DNA from: Turneriella sp.
GTDB taxonomy: Bacteria > Spirochaetota > Leptospiria > Turneriellales > Turneriellaceae
DNA length: 64,000 nt
NCBI GenBank assembly: GCA_965279515.1
Contig: CBDIID010000003.1
Span: forward strand, 992,001-1,056,000
Direction of reading: 5' to 3'
This document shows positions 1,504-11,523 of this stretch, one piece after another. The position numbers and the translations under genes are program-made. How positions within the stretch are numbered: position 1 is the first letter of the stretch; each line of letters opens with the position of its first letter. Under the pieces are notes generated by a model that searched no databases, was not told the origin of the DNA, and saw only the letters and a list, made by a program, of their open reading frames with translations.

Positions 1504-2634
1504 GTGCAAATCCTGCGCGCCATTGCGGGAAAATTTTTCGCCTTCTTTATAATAGCCCTCGCTGCGGGACATCCGACTTTTGCTCTCTACCAGGAATACC
1601 AATTGGCGGGCAGTATCGCCTCGGGGGGCGGTTATAGTTTTGGGACTGGGCAATACCGCCTATATGCAAACCAGGCTTTGCTGAAAAAAGATTTTTTGGG
1701 ATTCGAATACGATCTCGATAGCTTCTATGCCGATTATGGTTATGCGATCGCCGATTCTTTTCGCGTCGGCGTCAGCGGCAAGGCGCATATCTTCGACTAC
1801 CAGAATCTCAACCACATTGTCGACCCCGCGACGGGCGAAGAGCTCAAGGCGGTTTCGCTGAACTCGCCTTTTTACCGCGGCCAGGGTTATGCCGAGGCGC
1901 GCTACAAAAACCTCGCACTGCGCTACTCGGCAGGCGCGCAAAAATATCTGCTCGCCAAACGCGAGACAGCAAACAACACGCTGACCGTAGAGGCACCGGG
2001 CGCGATGTTTGTCCACAATGCGGCCCTGGGTTATTGGGATATCCAGCAGATCAAGCCGTATGCTTTCACGGGCATGGCGGCATACCTGAGCGTCGAGGAG
2101 CACCGCCTTTCTTCTTTATATGTCTGGCAGTCTGCCGGTACGAACTTGTCGGCGTCGCGCTCACAGGTGACCACACACGAGCTGCATGTCCGCGCCGGTA
2201 CACAGCTCGATGGCGATAGCGTTAAACTCATGGCTGCCATACGCGCAGGCGCGACGAATTTTGCCCTGCCCGGTGAAGCGCCGGATGTCATCGAATCGTT
2301 TTCGATCGGCGGCCCGGAGAACCGATACCGCCGTGTCGCAGGTTATGCGTTTTCCGAATTCCGTGTGCCGGCATTCGGCATTGTGAACCTCGACGCGATA
2401 ATCCGCATGGGCGGACCCGTCCATCTCTGGCTCGTCGCCGATGCTGCGCTCTTCGACCGCGAATACAATGCGCGGCGTTTCCATGCCGGTGCCGGTGCCG
2501 GCCTCATTGTCGATTTGCCCGACGGCATGCTCGGCGGCCGCAGCGCTTTTTTCTCACGCATCGAAATGCCCTTCTTTGCCGCAGGCAGCGGGCGTTTCCA
2601 GATTTTTCTTGGGCTGAACGGACAGATATTCTGA
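1504..2634 (+). CDS. Outer-membrane beta-barrel, Omp85/BamA-barrel-like, with no POTRA domains
   Basis: Signal peptide, alternating strands, FSIGG...RRVAGY loop resembling the Omp85 VRGY lid, and a C-terminal beta-signal ending in F. Confidence 0.65.
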   Translation: MQILRAIAGKFFAFFIIALAAGHPTFALYQEYQLAGSIASGGGYSFGTGQYRLYANQALLKKDFLGFEYDLDSFYADYGYAIADSFRVGVSGKAHIFDYQNLNHIVDPATGEELKAVSLNSPFYRGQGYAEARYKNLALRYSAGAQKYLLAKRETANNTLTVEAPGAMFVHNAALGYWDIQQIKPYAFTGMAAYLSVEEHRLSSLYVWQSAGTNLSASRSQVTTHELHVRAGTQLDGDSVKLMAAIRAGATNFALPGEAPDVIESFSIGGPENRYRRVAGYAFSEFRVPAFGIVNLDAIIRMGGPVHLWLVADAALFDREYNARRFHAGAGAGLIVDLPDGMLGGRSAFFSRIEMPFFAAGSGRFQIFLGLNGQIF

Positions 2635-3712: not shown

Positions 3713-3830
3713 ATCCCCACTATTGGGGATATGCGGCATTTTGCCGTACAGAATTTAGAAAAACACATTTACAGTAGGAATATACCGGTCCAGAGTTGCG
3801 GCCGGTGCTTGGACAACACCACAACATCAT

Positions 3831-5006
3831 ATGACAATATTTAAATACACGATTGCGTTATGGATTATTTCTTTATTGCCGGGGCTCGCCGCCGACGGTC
3901 GTTTTGTTTCCATGCACGGCAAAGTGCAGGTATTCGAAAAGGGCCGCTGGGCGAAGGCCGAGCTCACCAGCAAGATCACCGAGCAGTCGAGCGTCCAGGT
4001 GGGTTACCGCAGTGGTGCAATCGTTGGCCTTCAGGATGGTAGCCAGATTGCGATGAAGCCGAACAGCGTGGTGAGCTTCAATTATCTCGGTACAGACATC
4101 AACAAACCCAAATCGGAGATTTTCGTCGTGCAGGGTGGTTTAAGTGCCTTCGTAAAAAAACCCGAGGGGAATGCAAAGCATGTCTTCCATATACGCACAC
4201 CGAGCATGATCGTCGGCGTGCGCGGCTCGTTCATGGAACTCTCCAAAAACGGCGAACAGCACCATGTGACGGCAGTGCAATCACCAGCGTTTATAAAGAA
4301 CGATCCGACCGCGGCGACAACGCGCGAACGCCTGCAGAAGGCATTTGCTGTTTTAGAGCGCGCCTACCTTATGGACCGCGATGAAAAATTGCGTGTCGAA
4401 CGGCGCATTCGTGAAGCCAAGGTTGCTGAAGATGCCGAGGCGCTGCGCACCGTTGTAAATCCAACTCTGGCGACGCCGGAGATTAAAGAAGGTATCAGGG
4501 AAATCAACAACCATAAAATCTTAACAAAAGAACTGCTGATTCGGCAGAAGCAGATCTATTCGACAGATGCTTCCGATCGCCGGGAAATCATCAAGGTACT
4601 ATTTTCTGTGCGGGCTCTCACCTTGTTGCAGCTGGCATGGGCTGAAGCTGCATACAGGGCCGAACTCGACGCCTATCTCATCGCGCAAAAGACACAGGAA
4701 AAGAAAAAACAGGATACGGAAGAAGACGACGAACAATTTTTGAATACCATCGGCCTGACAATGATTCCCCAGGGCGATTCCGCTTCGGCCTCGGGCGATA
4801 TCAAAGGGCCCCTCTTTCAAAGAACCTTCGATTCACGCGCCGAGCGCAACTATTCGTCGGGCAGCTCGTCTGCTGAGAGCAGCTTTCTGGGCGGCAACAC
4901 CGACTCGCAGGCCGGTTTCGGCAACGATGTACAGGGCCTCTATAATTCCATCAACTCAGTCACACAACCGTCAGACGTCGGCGGACCTACCTTACAGAAA
5001 TTCTAA
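3831..5006 (+). CDS. Secreted FecR-domain protein with a large helical insertion
   Basis: Signal peptide; FecR-like beta motifs DGSQIAMKPNS, VVQGGL and IRTPSMIVGVRG; a charged helical segment follows. Confidence 0.75.
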   Translation: MTIFKYTIALWIISLLPGLAADGRFVSMHGKVQVFEKGRWAKAELTSKITEQSSVQVGYRSGAIVGLQDGSQIAMKPNSVVSFNYLGTDINKPKSEIFVVQGGLSAFVKKPEGNAKHVFHIRTPSMIVGVRGSFMELSKNGEQHHVTAVQSPAFIKNDPTAATTRERLQKAFAVLERAYLMDRDEKLRVERRIREAKVAEDAEALRTVVNPTLATPEIKEGIREINNHKILTKELLIRQKQIYSTDASDRREIIKVLFSVRALTLLQLAWAEAAYRAELDAYLIAQKTQEKKKQDTEEDDEQFLNTIGLTMIPQGDSASASGDIKGPLFQRTFDSRAERNYSSGSSSAESSFLGGNTDSQAGFGNDVQGLYNSINSVTQPSDVGGPTLQKF

Positions 5007-5051
5007 CATGGAAGACCGTCAGTTAAAAGCGAGATTTCATGGGAGAATTCA

Positions 5052-8000
5052 ATGCGTAGAATAATATTCTTTATCACTCTTGCAACGGTCGTTCTGGCAT
5101 GCGCCAAAAAAACTGTTCCCGGGTCGTCGCTGCGGGGGCTCGCCAAGCTCCAGTTAAACGGCGGCGCGGCCATCTCGCAGCCGGTTTCCGACGAATATAG
5201 TCCATACGTACTGCAGATGGGGGACAATTACCTCATGTTAGTGTTTGGTTCGAACCGGAGCTGCGGCAGCTGCAGCGGGCATAACCTTTTTGTGTCCCGC
5301 TCTGTTTCGCCGTACGCGAACGATAAGGTCTTTCCGGCATTCGAGTCGCCTGCTATCCTCACTATCTCGGCAGCGCCGCTCAATTTTAGCAACCGGATTA
5401 ACTTCGCTGTCGCAGCAGCCGGCAATAACCTGCGCATCTATCTCACAAATGCCGGCGGTGTGATTCAGGTGACACCCAACATTCCGCCCAATGCGCCCTA
5501 TGATACAACGCTTTTGACAATACCGAATACCGCCGGGCAGACCGCAACAGTCGTCGGTGTGGAGTTTGCCAACACTAAACTCTATGCACGGCAGAACGGA
5601 ACAGTTTACTCTTTCGAGCCGACTGTTGCCGCTGGGCCACTCACTGCAATGGCAACGGGCCAGACAGCCACCTCAGTGGCCAGCGTCGACGGCGCGTATA
5701 CATCCCGCTATGATGGTTTCTTTTCACTCATCGACGGCACAATCACTAGCATGTCGCTCTACGGCAATGGTGGTAATTTGGTGTCGGTAAATACCGCTGT
5801 GGCGAAAGCGCGCCTGAGCGCCCGACACGTCAGCGTTATGAATGGCGGAGGGTTTGGCGGCGCCTTAATGTTTGTTTCAGGCCAGGAAGCCGGCGAGACG
5901 AGTGAAGATATGTATGTCGTGGATGGTCTGACTGTCTACCAGATGTGGCAGGAGATAAATCCCAAGCCGCCGGGAGCCCCGGACGGTGGTTCAACTCCGG
6001 TCGCAACCGCAACGGCCGACCCTGCCTTTTCTCCCGTGGCTGGGCACTATGGTATGCCCATATCTGTCACGATGACTTCGACAACGACAGGCGCAACGAT
6101 ATGCTACACGACCGATGGAGTAACTGACCCGGCGTGCAGCGCAACGGCAACTTGTATAACGAGTAGCACTTACTCCACTCCGGTTTCTGTGACTTATACG
6201 ACGGCAAATTTCAGGACGCGTGCCTGTAAGGTTGGCCTGACAGATTCGGCGGTGATCTCTGCAACGCATGTTTCAGACGGCACGCAGCCAAGCACACCGG
6301 GTTCACCGGTCGCCGATGGCACCACCTCTTCGCAGGTACAACTCAGCTGGACTGCCTCAACCGACGCCGCAACCCCGCAACCACAACTGGTTTATGAAAT
6401 CTGCCAGACAACGATCAACAACGGCTGTAACACATTCACAGCGACCTTCACAAGCTCTGCCGGGGCGACTTCGTATAACTCGAATGGATTATCTGCTTCG
6501 ACCACGTATTATTACCGCATCCGCTCGCGCGATTTGGCAGGTAACACCAGCGGTTATACCGGTCAGTTAACAGCAGCAACCCTTACCGCTCCGACGGTCA
6601 ATACGCCGACCTTCAATCCGGTTGCAGGCACTTACAATGCAACCCAGAATGTCACGATCAGTACGACCACGGGCTCTGCGCTTCTATGCTACACGACCGA
6701 CGGCAGCACTCCTGCTTGCAACGCCACACCGACGTGTACAACCGGAACCACATATAGCAGCGCCGTAAATATCGCCGCGACGGCTACACTCCGCGCAATC
6801 GGCTGCCGCAATGGTTATACGAATTCATCGGTTACGGCGGGAGGGTATACAATCGACACTACGGCGCCTGTCATTACCGGCACCGCCCCCATAACGGGTG
6901 CGACAGTTTCGAATACGCAGGTCAGCTATTCCGTGGACGAAACTTGCGCCTCAGGAAACATAACATGGACGTGGACAGGGGGTACGCCGGATGGTGGCCC
7001 GCATATCAGATCTTTAGTCGGGGGTGAGCTAACCTCAGGCAGTCACAACAGTATTACCCTGACAAACAATCCCACATTGGTTTCCGGGGCAGTATATTCA
7101 GTTTCTTTTAACTGTACGGACGCAGCCGGGAACGCCGCTACGACGGTCACCAGTACAAACGTGACTCATTCGGCTTCTGGTGGTACGACATGGACGGGAC
7201 GAACCATGCCTAGTGCTGCCGATTGGCGTTCGGTCACTTATGGGAATGGAGTATTCGTGTCCGTTGCCGCTGGCACAAGTACCAAAGCCGCAACCTCGCC
7301 AGATGGCATAACCTGGACAGCAAGAACTCTACCCGGTGCCGCGAATGAATGGTATTCCGTCACGTACGGAAACGGCGTCTTCGTTGCGATAACGCAAGGT
7401 AGTACTGCAGCCGCGACATCGCCTGACGGTATTACCTGGACGGCGCGCACTCTACCGAGCGCTGCTAATTGGATTTCAGTTACCTATGGAAACGGCGTTT
7501 TTGTCGTCGTCGCAAACAACAGCACCGCAGCGGCAACATCACCCAATGGCATTACCTGGACGGCGCGCACTCTGCCTGTCTCTACTCCATGGAGATCGGT
7601 GACTTACGGTAATGGAATGTTTGCCGCCGTTTCTGACGGGCCAAGCACAATTGCGGCAAGCTCCCCAGATGGAGTTACATGGACGCAGAGAACTTTGCCA
7701 AGTTCCCGACAATGGTACTCCGTAACATATGGGAACGGCGTTTTTGCGGCGATTGCCTTGTCGAGTAACTCGGCAGCCACGTCAACGGACGGCATTACTT
7801 GGGCTGCAAGGACTTTACCCAGCTCTACGACATGGTGTGCCGTAACTTACGGGAATGGCATCTTTGCGGCTGTAGCGCAAGCCACCACTACGGCGGCAAC
7901 CTCAACAGACGGAATCACCTGGACAGCCCGAACATTGCCAAGCTCTGCTTCATGGTCTTCGGTTGCTTATGGAAATGGCATGTTTGCCGCTGTGAGTATT

Positions 8001-9242
8001 TTTGGTACCGGCGCCGCAAGCTCGCCCAATCCGGACACGACACCACCGACAATGGTCAGTATTAATCCGACCGATTCGGCAAATAATATTTCAGCTGGCA
8101 CGAGTGTGCAGATAGCTTTCAACGAAACGATTAACGCCGGAACGATTTCAGCAACGACAAGTGCCACATGTACCGGTACGCTTCAGCTTTCCGCTGACAA
8201 CTTCTCGACCTGTGTTCCGATGAGCAGCACTATACCCACACCTTCCGGCAACGATACAATCTTCACCATGACACCAACAAATTTATTAGCCGTATCCACC
8301 ACCTATAAAGTGCGAATAACCAATGGTGTTCTAGATAGCTCAGGCAATGCCATGGTTCTCTATACGCAAGGTACTGGTTTCACCACCAGAAGTACTCTCC
8401 CCGGAGAATCCTGGACTGCCCGGACATTACCGAGCTCCGCGAACTGGCGCTCCGTTGCATATGGAAACGGAACTTTTGTTGCCGTAGCAACAGGGAGTAC
8501 CAACGCCGCGACCTCAACCAACGGGATCACGTGGACGGCGCGCACACTACCCAGCGCACTGAGTTGGTATTCCGTCACGTACGGAAACGGGACTTTCGTC
8601 GCCGTAGCAAATGGCAGTAATGTCGCAGCAACTTCGCCAGACGGCATCACATGGACCTCCCGCACTTTACCTAGTTCCACAGGCTGGGCATCGGTCACAT
8701 ATGGTAACGGAGTCTTCGTCACTACAGCGTCGGGTAGCAACGCCGCCGCAACTTCTAGCGATGGTATCACCTGGACTGCACGCACACTACCCAGTTCAAC
8801 GGCATGGATTTCTGTCACTTACGGAAATGGGGTTTTTGTCGTTGTAGCTTATAATACAACCTCCGCTGCGACGTCCCCCGATGGTATCACATGGACAGCC
8901 CGTACGCTACCGGGCTCCGCCGCATGGATTTCAATCGCTTATGGCAATGGAGCTTTTATAGCCGTACCTTACGGAGGCGGCGTTGCGCTTAGATCCACCG
9001 ACGGGATAACATGGACGCAACCAAGTTTGCCCACCTCAAGTGGCTGGTCTTCGGTAGCCTACGGAAACGGTGTATTCGTCGCGGTTGCTGAAGGTGTGAC
9101 GATCGGCGCAACCTCTCCGGATGGCATTTCGTGGACACAACGCACCATTCCCAATGGATTCTGGCTGGGAGTTACTTACGGAAATAATATCTTCGTATCC
9201 GTTGCTCAAGGACCTAGCACGGCGGCCGCCACTTCACCGTAA
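5052..9242 (+). CDS. Large surface lipoprotein: N-terminal domain, two CHB_HEX_C/Fn3-associated-like domains, Fn3, Ig-like domains and two 7-repeat Asp-box beta-propellers
   Basis: Lipobox VVLAC; two P.F.P..G.Y...CYTTDG..P repeats; Fn3 motifs LSWTASTD...GLSASTTYYYRIRSRD; Big_5-like DTTPP...P.....LAVSTTYKV; 14 copies of WxSVTYGNGxFVAV..AATSPDGITWTARTLP. Confidence 0.85.
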   Translation: MRRIIFFITLATVVLACAKKTVPGSSLRGLAKLQLNGGAAISQPVSDEYSPYVLQMGDNYLMLVFGSNRSCGSCSGHNLFVSRSVSPYANDKVFPAFESPAILTISAAPLNFSNRINFAVAAAGNNLRIYLTNAGGVIQVTPNIPPNAPYDTTLLTIPNTAGQTATVVGVEFANTKLYARQNGTVYSFEPTVAAGPLTAMATGQTATSVASVDGAYTSRYDGFFSLIDGTITSMSLYGNGGNLVSVNTAVAKARLSARHVSVMNGGGFGGALMFVSGQEAGETSEDMYVVDGLTVYQMWQEINPKPPGAPDGGSTPVATATADPAFSPVAGHYGMPISVTMTSTTTGATICYTTDGVTDPACSATATCITSSTYSTPVSVTYTTANFRTRACKVGLTDSAVISATHVSDGTQPSTPGSPVADGTTSSQVQLSWTASTDAATPQPQLVYEICQTTINNGCNTFTATFTSSAGATSYNSNGLSASTTYYYRIRSRDLAGNTSGYTGQLTAATLTAPTVNTPTFNPVAGTYNATQNVTISTTTGSALLCYTTDGSTPACNATPTCTTGTTYSSAVNIAATATLRAIGCRNGYTNSSVTAGGYTIDTTAPVITGTAPITGATVSNTQVSYSVDETCASGNITWTWTGGTPDGGPHIRSLVGGELTSGSHNSITLTNNPTLVSGAVYSVSFNCTDAAGNAATTVTSTNVTHSASGGTTWTGRTMPSAADWRSVTYGNGVFVSVAAGTSTKAATSPDGITWTARTLPGAANEWYSVTYGNGVFVAITQGSTAAATSPDGITWTARTLPSAANWISVTYGNGVFVVVANNSTAAATSPNGITWTARTLPVSTPWRSVTYGNGMFAAVSDGPSTIAASSPDGVTWTQRTLPSSRQWYSVTYGNGVFAAIALSSNSAATSTDGITWAARTLPSSTTWCAVTYGNGIFAAVAQATTTAATSTDGITWTARTLPSSASWSSVAYGNGMFAAVSIFGTGAASSPNPDTTPPTMVSINPTDSANNISAGTSVQIAFNETINAGTISATTSATCTGTLQLSADNFSTCVPMSSTIPTPSGNDTIFTMTPTNLLAVSTTYKVRITNGVLDSSGNAMVLYTQGTGFTTRSTLPGESWTARTLPSSANWRSVAYGNGTFVAVATGSTNAATSTNGITWTARTLPSALSWYSVTYGNGTFVAVANGSNVAATSPDGITWTSRTLPSSTGWASVTYGNGVFVTTASGSNAAATSSDGITWTARTLPSSTAWISVTYGNGVFVVVAYNTTSAATSPDGITWTARTLPGSAAWISIAYGNGAFIAVPYGGGVALRSTDGITWTQPSLPTSSGWSSVAYGNGVFVAVAEGVTIGATSPDGISWTQRTIPNGFWLGVTYGNNIFVSVAQGPSTAAATSP
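7191..8027 (+). repeat. Coding tandem repeat, 7 units of about 120 nt (40-aa propeller blades), array 1
   Basis: Seven YGNG-containing units counted in the translation. Confidence 0.9.
8412..9239 (+). repeat. Coding tandem repeat, 7 units of about 120 nt (40-aa propeller blades), array 2
   Basis: Seven YGN(G/N)-containing units counted in the translation, ending at the stop codon. Confidence 0.9.
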
Positions 9243-9271
9243 AGGATACTGAAAGTTTACCGGACAACAAA

Positions 9272-9886
9272 ATGAACAGATTTAGAATTTTTGCCATGAT
9301 AATTATTACGGCTTTTGCTTTGCCAGGAAATATTATCCCGCTCCTGACCGACAACCTCATCCTCGACGAAGAGCTCTCCGCCATCCGCGCGATCACCGTG
9401 ACCAAGAAGGCCACTTTCTCCGATCTCTGCAAGATTGTGCTCATCCATAGGGGTGAGCTCGAAAAATACCCGACCGACGAAGAACGCTGCGCCCGCGTCG
9501 CCGAGCTCGGCATCTACAACACGAAATCCGTCGACTATATCCACCTGACACCACTGCGCAAAGGCGCCGTTGCAAAGGCAGCAATCAACCTGCACAAGCT
9601 CGAAACCACCCTGCTCTTTCAGCTTTTGAACTGGGAATGGTATGCCATCCAGAACGCCGAAGCACTCGGCATCATCGAAAAGGGTTCGAATACCTGGGAT
9701 GAACTCTCGGGCGAAGAGCTCATCATCACCATGGATCTTGCACTCGCCAAGGCCATGGAAAAAGACGGCTGGATGAAGGAAAAAAATCCTTACAAAGAAT
9801 TCGGCTTTGATTCTTACCAGGACATGGACAAAAAGACAAAACCGGAACCGAAACCGACGCAGAAAGAAGAAACGGAAAATCCGTAG
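9272..9886 (+). CDS. Exported hypothetical protein, helical, with SLH-like pseudo-repeats
   Basis: N-terminal signal sequence; repeated (E/A)LGI motifs followed by ATFSDL/LRKGAV/LSGEEL helix starts, as in SLH-like repeats. Confidence 0.6.
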   Translation: MNRFRIFAMIIITAFALPGNIIPLLTDNLILDEELSAIRAITVTKKATFSDLCKIVLIHRGELEKYPTDEERCARVAELGIYNTKSVDYIHLTPLRKGAVAKAAINLHKLETTLLFQLLNWEWYAIQNAEALGIIEKGSNTWDELSGEELIITMDLALAKAMEKDGWMKEKNPYKEFGFDSYQDMDKKTKPEPKPTQKEETENP

Positions 9887-9895
9887 GATTCAACT

Positions 9896-11485
9896 ATGAA
9901 AGTGACGCTGAGATTTATCCCCTGCCTGATTATTGCCCTTGCCGTTGCGGGCACGGCGACGTACGCCGCAAAAGCGAAGAAGAAAAAGCCAAAAGCCGCG
10001 AAAATCGAAGAGACGAAACCGGCGGCACCGGCTTCTGCGGCGGACAAATCTGTGATCGGGCGCGAGGCCGCGGAGTTTGAAAAGAAATTGCCCGCGGCAG
10101 AAAAAAAACCGGATGCATCTGCGGCCGACAGGGCCATAATATCCGAGCCACCTCCGCCTTCCGTCCCCGCCGCCGTGAGCGATGCCGAAGAAGTTCCGAA
10201 AAAACACTATTTGCGCGGCGGTCTGATTGCCACAAATACCTTCTATATCGATCCGACGATTAATCCTGGCCTTTACTCAGGCTTCTTCCGCCCGTTCGGC
10301 AAATACACGTACGATGAAAAATGGGAGTTCAGCGCGCGGGGAAACATCATCGTGAAGCACTACGCCCAGCAGCTGGCAACACTCAAACAGACGAACGTTG
10401 TGGGCAGCCTCGAGATACTTTCAGCCGAAACCAAAATTGCCGGCCACCAGATCATGGCCGGCCGCAACTTCTATGCCATCGAACAGGGGCTGCTCTTTGC
10501 CAACTTTGCCGACGGCATTTCGTACAATGGTAAATACCGCTTCGGGCAGATCCGTGCCTTTGCCGTCTACTCGGGTGATTATGGCTCTTCGCTGTGTTCG
10601 CTCAATGTTACCGGCTGCAATGGCGATCCGGGGCCGTTCGTCAATACCCCCAACCTCGCGCCCGACTCCGGGATTCAGAATTCAGGCCAGAGGCTGTTTT
10701 TCGCCGCGGAATATTTCTCACCCGAATATCTCGGCGGCCAGCTGTTCTCTTATTTTCTTTATTCGCGCGATATGATTAAGGAGAGCGCGGCAGCAAAGTA
10801 TGAGTACAATCCCTGGTATGGCGGCATCGGTGCGCGCGGATATATCAATAACTCCGCCTACCGCTACCGCGGCGAGTTTATCTACCAGGGCGGCAGTACC
10901 TACAACCAGTTGCTGAACGGCTCATCTGAAGCAACGACGATCTCGGCTTTTGCGGCGCTGGTCAACTTTACCTGGAGCATGCCAGTCCTGAAAAATTTTG
11001 ACCCCCAGCTGCTCGCCGATTTTGCCATCGGCTCGGGCGACGGCGACAGCACACGCGTCACGAACGGTTCGCAGTCGAATACATCCGGCAATTACAATGC
11101 CTTCCAGAATTTCGGCAGTTTTTCCGGCGGCCTTGCCCTCAAGCCCCGCCTTGCGAATATGCAGGTATATCGTCTCGGCACGTATTTTCGTCCGTTCAAA
11201 TCGATGTATGCGCTCCGCAACCTTTCGGCGCAGCTGAAATATTCTTATTACCGCAAGAGCGTGGCGGCGGGCGGGATATCAGACCCCGGCGCGACCGAAA
11301 CAAATGCCGATGTCGGCCACGCAGCCGACCTGGCCTTGGTCTTCAATGCCAAGGCGGATGTCCAGTTCTTCTACGGCTTTGGTCTCTTCAAGCCCGGTGG
11401 CGCCTACCCCGTCACGGCGTATGACGGCACAGCCGGGCAGGCATGGCGTTATGCGCACCTGATCAGCCTGACGCTGATTTTCTAA
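9896..11485 (+). CDS. Outer-membrane beta-barrel (alginate-export-like C-terminal half) with a K/A/P-rich N-terminal linker
   Basis: Signal peptide, low-complexity linker, aromatic-rich alternating strands, GSGDGD...YNAF and GHAADL...FKPGGAY motifs, terminal F. Confidence 0.75.
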   Translation: MKVTLRFIPCLIIALAVAGTATYAAKAKKKKPKAAKIEETKPAAPASAADKSVIGREAAEFEKKLPAAEKKPDASAADRAIISEPPPPSVPAAVSDAEEVPKKHYLRGGLIATNTFYIDPTINPGLYSGFFRPFGKYTYDEKWEFSARGNIIVKHYAQQLATLKQTNVVGSLEILSAETKIAGHQIMAGRNFYAIEQGLLFANFADGISYNGKYRFGQIRAFAVYSGDYGSSLCSLNVTGCNGDPGPFVNTPNLAPDSGIQNSGQRLFFAAEYFSPEYLGGQLFSYFLYSRDMIKESAAAKYEYNPWYGGIGARGYINNSAYRYRGEFIYQGGSTYNQLLNGSSEATTISAFAALVNFTWSMPVLKNFDPQLLADFAIGSGDGDSTRVTNGSQSNTSGNYNAFQNFGSFSGGLALKPRLANMQVYRLGTYFRPFKSMYALRNLSAQLKYSYYRKSVAAGGISDPGATETNADVGHAADLALVFNAKADVQFFYGFGLFKPGGAYPVTAYDGTAGQAWRYAHLISLTLIF

Positions 11486-11523
11486 CTGATTGACAGGGCG
11501 TTTCGACCTCCGTTTTTCACGGG

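Follow-up and report, generated by a model that had tools for sequence, protein, structure and literature searches.

Four linked genes of a Turneriella genome may build an envelope-spanning receptor around an interchangeable lipoprotein

What is the common task of four exported proteins encoded side by side in a Turneriella genome: to export a giant lipoprotein, to anchor it or to sense through it? The genes occupy positions 3831–11485 of a 64,000-nucleotide stretch of DNA (the window; assembly GCA_965279515.1, contig CBDIID010000003.1, positions 992,001–1,056,000, written G000:C3:992001-1056000 below, with G000 denoting the genome under study), for which a sequence-only reading had proposed a dedicated machine that exports, anchors or senses through the lipoprotein. 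We favour an envelope-spanning receptor that would relay binding or pull at the lipoprotein tip to a CHASE2 adenylate cyclase, and give this reading about an even chance of being right. The four co-oriented open reading frames (ORFs) were recovered at the coordinates given previously, separated by 45, 29 and 9 nt, and each product has a single hydrophobic stretch, at its N-terminus, in agreement with export of all four; signal-peptide cleavage sites were judged by eye, without a predictor. They are, in order:

3831–5006, + strand: FecR-domain linker protein (F), secreted, 391 amino acids (aa); ORF, FecR domain hit and homologue alignment
5052–9242, + strand: lipoprotein (L), 1396 aa, Cys17, with a base, an Ig/Fn3 stalk and two repeat arrays; ORF, Pfam and lipobox
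9272–9886, + strand: secreted 204-aa protein (S) with a predicted S-layer homology (SLH) fold, putatively wall-binding; model, Foldseek and profile hit
9896–11485, + strand: predicted outer-membrane beta-barrel (B), 529 aa, Alginate_exp/AlgE-like; Pfam, atlas and homologue profiles

S, F and B (the triad) constitute a conserved unit across spirochaetes, which recurs in Phycisphaerae. The S profile matches 131 of the 401 spirochaete genomes sampled, mostly once, and none of the 76 genomes in one large family of the same class, a sample rather than proof of absence. Within the family of the source organism (own family hereafter), the triad is complete in 32 of 37 fetched loci, the remaining five being cut by contig ends, and the base of L is present in 18 of the 37. 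Among 60 further loci, picked for spread and not at random (two are weak extra hits in the own family), F and the triad were found in 57, in several gene orders. At the barrel position there is a B homologue throughout, including the loci in which the first profile had failed to detect one (19 proteins, with E values of 2.5e-20 to 2e-3; HH probability 99.9%). Similar sets beside variable surface proteins of other spirochaetes had been mentioned in the sequence-only reading, and the neighbourhood comparison bears this out. A library search yielded 790 S representatives, including natural fusions of SLH with barrel (P0152, E 4e-72 to a barrel profile), with FecR (P0181, L187–L189) and with OmpA (P0141), as well as a weak LysM-S fusion. 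In three Phycisphaerae records, B adjoins an S-FecR fusion, and one of these also has a divergent CHASE2 cyclase. The Phycisphaerae sets at L187 and L189 adjoin large secreted repeat proteins, adhesin-like in look. One triad type without an adjoining lipoprotein (L047–L049, L051–L053, L055, L063 and G000:C3:1230207-1233077) precedes an oxidoreductase and a sigma-28-like gene, both named by eye.

The commonest extra neighbour of the triad elsewhere, which the sequence-only reading had missed, is a CHASE2 cyclase. A CHASE2 protein is encoded within the ~6.5 kb flank of the triad in 36 of the 60 further loci, versus ~1.5% by chance; the profile used was built from 13 linked proteins, 26 of the 36 were confirmed by Pfam and 25 have a cyclase domain. 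All 33 linked full-length spirochaete CHASE2 cyclases (33/33) fall into one starred clade of a tree that was computed with FastTree only and included 19 unlinked cyclases hand-picked for comparison among the top CHASE2 hits. No ECF sigma factor or TonB-dependent transducer was found in the flanking genes scanned. The linkage to a single cyclase clade makes a trans-envelope receptor likelier than an export machine, so that, of the tasks offered by the sequence-only reading, 'senses through' gains over 'exports', whereas 'anchors' is still a serious option in this particular genome. Other CHASE2 cyclase clades (L243–L246, L249, L250) have recurring neighbours of their own, a small secreted protein and a lipoprotein.

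The receptor reading assigns a distinct role to each protein. L combines a conserved base with interchangeable tips, carried on a stalk:

5133–5969, + strand: conserved N-terminal base, residues ~28–306, predicted atypical beta-propeller; model and homologues
5907–5930, + strand: predicted docking edge of the base, residues 286–293; complex prediction
5997–7175, + strand: stalk of CHB_HEX_C_1/Fn3_assoc, Fn3 and Ig-like domains; Pfam
7191–9239, + strand: variable tip, two sets of seven repeats (14 in all, ~40 aa each) with Big_5 (residues 995–1112) between the sets; Pfam and repeats

The two repeat sets probably form two 7-bladed propellers. No Pfam family over the cut-off covers the ~280-aa base, which is modelled confidently (predicted local distance difference test, pLDDT, 91.6) and is predicted to resemble propellers only loosely, the matches among solved structures being distant propellers with a template modelling (TM) score of at most 0.48. 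When 19 of 27 tip references, with the window's own, were scanned, the tips comprised five LamG, six NHL, four DUF1554, one DUF5122 propeller, two cases of stalk only and one Big_5 with window-like repeats; six further lipoproteins are the base alone, without a tip. Locus L031 has the downstream genes (77% DNA identity), the base, the stalk and the length of 1396 aa in common with the window and differs in the propeller. The genome under study has four lipoproteins with this base, three adjoining a triad and one standing alone. Beyond the own family, lipoprotein genes, recognized by our own lipobox pattern, account for 31 of 118 triad-touching genes vs 21 of 273 at a distance of at least three genes. 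Several side observations concern the lipoproteins. Near triads of the other tail type (L103, L104, L114, L116, L117, L121, L146, L149, L151, L154), their first strand is followed by an amphipathic stretch ending in Ala-x-Ala, resembling a second cleavage site; distant base relatives occur in tandem lipoprotein arrays of one genus (L162–L165, L170–L172, L177, L178, L183, L184); and barrel or lipoprotein genes are in two pieces at L035, L036, L042 and L061, through either true breaks or assembly errors.

The predicted partner of the base is the C-terminal tail of F. Strand addition between the two was predicted before the complex job was run, which combined the lipoprotein base with the last 36 residues of F and included neither the barrel nor the SLH-fold protein. 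The complex scored 0.87, 0.84 and 0.85, versus 0.01, 0.00 and 0.00 for three controls, on a scale whose mark is reached by 116 of 157 solved pairs and 2 of 215 mismatched ones and serves only as a rough guide with own alignments. The runs share at least 80% of contacts. The confident contacts place residues 385–391 of F antiparallel to residues 286–293 of L and beside its residues 30–34, and an Asp on the docked edge is invariant in 19 of 19 bases. In this model, the last seven residues of F contribute an extra beta-strand to the lipoprotein base, which supports contact between the two proteins (0.85 vs 0.01 for the best control) without demonstrating binding. In the own family, all F tails end in a strand, with K or R second-last in 34 of 34.

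F consists of a signal peptide, a FecR domain (PF04773, residues 63–149, E 2.6e-8, over the cut-off), a charged, helical-looking insert of ~140 aa that is limited to long forms of F, a linker and a C-terminal strand. Two of its features matter here:

4224–4229, + strand: Gly132-Ser133, aligned with the Gly-Thr self-cleavage pair of FecR/FoxR, putatively cleaved; homologue alignment
4983–5003, + strand: predicted docking strand, the last seven residues (385–391); complex prediction and tail conservation

Because ~21 residues precede the FecR domain (<45 in most of 92 homologues), there is no room for a cytoplasmic anti-sigma part; as stated in the sequence-only reading, F lacks the N-terminal cytoplasmic anti-sigma domain, and it also lacks the associated membrane helix. 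A Gly-Thr self-cleavage site is known from Escherichia coli FecR, in which the two halves remain associated after cleavage and signalling requires their separation (PMC12036975), and Leptospira FecR proteins have been suggested to self-cleave and separate likewise (PMC13719327), as far as the accessible portions of these reports go. The corresponding position is G-T or G-S in 92 of 92 aligned F homologues and G-S in 13 of 13 long-form FecR proteins; self-cleavage of F at G132/S133 is likely, judging by this alignment. In three of the four Phycisphaerae fusions, 107 residues lie between the Gly and a strand (115 in the fourth), and free F proteins (n=90) have a median of 114 residues from the Gly to the C-terminus, a resemblance in spacing only. 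The domain fused behind FecR in Phycisphaerae was considered as a homologue of other spirochaete lipoprotein bases and rejected (HH probability 0.2%).

S has no Pfam SLH (PF00395) match at E 0.1. Nevertheless, the SLH likeness noticed in the sequence-only reading gains weight from a profile of 95 S homologues that matches SpaA-SLH (E 1e-4) and from a model (pLDDT 95.1) whose first Foldseek matches are SLH structures (SpaA-SLH, TM 0.66, E 8.7e-4). The fold is accordingly a prediction, and cell-wall binding would be its probable consequence. In the atlas, S falls into unnamed spirochaete clusters, the nearest named cluster being SLH at 0.87, as a lead only; its named relatives are from Turneriella. 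A fifth, diverged S-like gene lies alone, without F or B, at G000:C3:4636416-4636958 (− strand), and likewise at L144. For B, PF13372 Alginate_exp (E 1.5e-11) was the sole family hit at E 0.1, and the atlas placement agrees. The protein has a Lys/Ala/Pro-rich N-terminal region and a C-terminal Phe; its profile matches no sequence of a solved structure at E 1, and it has no TPR or DUF560 hit (E 0.1) and no NCBIfam family. Polysaccharide synthase and TPR lipoprotein genes are missing among the window ORFs, and clustering revealed no conserved such neighbour in the own-family loci.

Put together, these parts suggest how the receptor might operate. S would fasten the barrel to the cell wall. The FecR domain would lie in the periplasm and the linker of F would pass through the barrel, so that the C-terminal strand of F could clip, on the outside, onto the base shared by the interchangeable and presumably surface-exposed lipoproteins. 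Binding or pull at the lipoprotein tip would change the probably self-cleaved FecR domain, separation of its halves being the putative switch, and the changed domain would act, by direct contact, on a CHASE2 adenylate cyclase and thereby on cyclic AMP (cAMP).

Several observations weigh against this reading, above all in the genome in which the locus was found. A CHASE2 gene accompanies none of the 37 own-family loci and none of the four loci of this genome, which is 99.99% complete and in which the linked cyclase clade was not found. Its single CHASE2 cyclase over the cut-off (G000:C3:4749395-4751863) is unlinked, 3.7 Mb away, and groups with three unlinked cyclases (99, starred), outside the linked clade; this placement led us to reject it as an orthologue of the linked ones. 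Twenty FecR domains in this genome could share that one cyclase. No SLH protein or triad barrel stands beside 20 other CHASE2 loci (five of the own family), and CHASE2 without the module is common, occurring in 325 of 401 genomes, including 76 of 76 in the family with 0 of 76 SLH hits. An alternative conserved membrane receptor beside the own-family loci was not seen among 69 neighbour clusters, judged by their first 50 residues and without a family scan. The F-tail partner has a pLDDT of 45–46 in the complex, which leaves the tail's own fold uncertain. Tail type matches lipoprotein type in 6 of 9 vs 0 of 47 (Fisher p 2.6e-6); the tree reduces this match to 1–2 independent changes and a single independent pair, and it is therefore not counted as independent support. 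Finally, the FecR group of the window sits on a long branch of the tree.

With the dedicated cyclase missing here, output would need the unlinked CHASE2 cyclase or another receptor. The former is kept in 18 of 20 own-family genomes, at 78–94% identity within the genus, and this genome has more than 40 cyclase-like ORFs. Three other membrane cyclase-like genes (G000:C3:1782299, 4191571 and 4619622) each have a FecR-domain gene immediately downstream. The ancestral linked cyclase was either lost or replaced in this genome.

The most serious rival is that the own family has retained tethering and display alone, adhesin-like lipoproteins being held and tied to the wall and the signalling output having gone with the cyclase. 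The missing dedicated clade and the four triads in this genome, versus mostly one per genome elsewhere, indicate that the module may only tether and display here. The long FecR branch and the helical-looking insert of the window's group point the same way, SLH plus barrel is the plan of the OmpM tether (bioRxiv 10.1101/2021.05.31.446380, from the part of the preprint available), and the docking prediction fits a tether too. The G-S/T pair is, however, kept in 35 of 35 own-family FecR proteins, the six base-only lipoproteins have no tip to show, and the family strongly conserves one CHASE2 cyclase, next to which no partner is encoded. On balance, we regard display alone as rather unlikely, although it deserves to be taken seriously.

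Export, the lead option of the sequence-only reading, would make the barrel a dedicated lipoprotein translocon and the base a targeting domain, with the FecR tail hooking the cargo to draw it in or retain it. A conserved base with unrelated tips does look like a targeting domain, lipoproteins outnumber triads (a base count of at least 6 vs 2–3 triads in each of three complete genomes), and AlgE-family barrels are polysaccharide export pores according to the Pfam description. Yet a translocon leaves the dedicated cyclase clade and the kept self-cleavage pair unexplained, the loci showed no POTRA, TPR or energising partner, and in Phycisphaerae, where no gene for a partner lipoprotein was detected, the FecR tail runs straight on into a domain fused to it, all of which makes export improbable. 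We consider it more improbable still that the lipoprotein faces inward and that the other three proteins sense how far the outer membrane is from the wall, or the tension between the two, rather than ligands outside. A periplasmic sensor of this kind would suit the 30 of 60 further loci in which no lipoprotein gene touches the triad, and the existence of base-only lipoproteins; but a triad that lacks a lipoprotein of its own can draw on an unlinked one that shares the base, and the exchange of LamG, NHL, DUF1554, DUF5122 and Ig/Fn3 tips at the same locus fits binding outside. That the genes simply happen to lie together, or are left over from ordinary iron signalling of the FecIRA type, as the FecR domain and the varying gene order might suggest, is already contradicted by linkage across two phyla and in fusions, and by the missing anti-sigma part, sigma factor and TonB receptor nearby, and is scarcely credible.

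The preferred receptor reading can be extended, tentatively and with less confidence than the receptor itself, to an undescribed class of touch receptors of spirochaetes and some planctomycetes, in which the tail of a self-cleaved FecR protein would thread a wall-anchored barrel and capture any of the interchangeable lipoproteins of a genome by beta-sheet completion, a pull at the tip leading to cAMP. If so, FecR fragments would be what CHASE2 domains bind, the ligand so far missing, and exchange of tips would change what the cell senses. The ligand of CHASE2 is stated as unknown (PMC5192318, in the part of the text available), and the module bears on what this domain senses. It also bears on the poorly understood question of how the numerous variable lipoproteins of spirochaetes are held and put to use. 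The predicted binding pair is small, a seven-residue peptide and a 280-residue domain, and this genome, with the dedicated cyclase gone and the outer parts in several copies, offers a natural experiment separating display from signal.

As for the surroundings of the four genes, one further feature lies upstream:

3713–3749, + strand: two adjacent 7-bp hairpins just 3' of the upstream gene, a putative terminator; fold −19.2 kcal/mol

These hairpins and the TTGACA at 11490–11495, both pointed out in the sequence-only reading, are where they were said to be, but regulatory motifs do not rise above chance: a consensus scan picked neither, and its promoter-like (9 vs 7.7 +/- 2.2) and terminator-like (19 vs 13.8 +/- 4.4) matches were near chance. 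Sigma-factor and TonB-receptor families had no hits among 59 window ORFs (eight in the first family scan and 51 scanned at E 1e-8, shadow ORFs excluded), in line with the earlier statement that the window holds no extracytoplasmic function (ECF) sigma factor or TonB-dependent receptor and that this is not canonical FecIRA. At 1504–2634 (+ strand), separated by 1 nt from a following CofH/MqnC radical SAM gene, lies the gene for a 376-aa protein with a signal-like start and a C-terminal Phe, single-copy in the genome and without a Pfam/NCBIfam match, which may be another outer-membrane barrel.

How does the module compare with known systems? We found no description of it in the literature searched, with subscription papers mostly outside coverage, and most of the comparisons below rest on the accessible parts of the sources. 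The closest relay may be that of NsrA, an outer-membrane barrel of Sinorhizobium meliloti that acts upstream of the CHASE2 cyclases CyaK, CyaD1 and CyaD2 (PMC7529298, PMC13001267, PMC5498481). The present module likewise has a predicted outer-membrane barrel (PF13372, atlas), and the NsrA regulon also includes an extracytoplasmic FecR-domain protein, SMc02177, which is not required for signal perception. NsrA itself carries a FecR domain. NsrA is, however, a single ~1200-aa protein, with signal binding attributed to its own loops, whereas the module consists of several proteins; no SLH protein or swappable lipoprotein is described for the NsrA system in those parts of the reports; and a CHASE2 cyclase is linked to the module in 36 of the 60 further loci, but in this genome the linked cyclase is missing and the CHASE2 cyclase over the cut-off is unlinked and of another clade.

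FecIRA systems (E. coli FecR, Pseudomonas FoxR) have in common with F the FecR domain with its Gly-Thr/Ser pair (PMC12036975) but differ from the module, which has no transmembrane anti-sigma part, ECF sigma factor or TonB-dependent transducer and in which the C-terminal part of F is a long linker ending in one strand. In a Burkholderia operon, a secreted LysM-FecR protein is encoded beside a CHASE2 histidine kinase (PMC5192318), so that a secreted FecR domain, a wall-binding domain and a CHASE2 receptor are again encoded together; the module differs in its separate SLH-fold wall part, its barrel and its variable lipoprotein, and its output elsewhere is a cyclase and not a kinase. The OmpM/SlpA tethers resemble it in joining SLH and beta-barrel, fused as in P0152 or in adjacent genes as in the window, whereas the barrel here is AlgE-like, the SLH domain lies below Pfam detection and both always occur with a FecR protein. 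In Slam/type XI export of surface lipoproteins, a barrel gene adjoins a lipoprotein gene with a conserved recognition domain. Here, however, the barrel has no DUF560/TPR hit and the conserved cargo domain is N-terminal, and membership in Slam (no TPR/DUF560) as well as in FecIRA (no anti-sigma, ECF or TonB parts) was rejected.

The module may share the logic of the SEAL-domain mechanosensors of RsgI, for which constitutive self-cleavage, with the halves held together and their separation by force regulated, has been proposed (bioRxiv 10.1101/2023.06.27.546760); those domains have another fold and belong to Gram-positive anti-sigma factors, so that the likeness is an analogy only. SLH and CsaB have been reported as practically absent from Gracilicutes, with OmpA as the sole tether of spirochaetes (bioRxiv 10.1101/2021.05.31.446380), and the predicted SLH fold of S thus occurs in a group from which it was reported to be practically missing. 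Set beside these systems, the module is real and probably a variant of little-studied trans-envelope signalling, with a testable interface.

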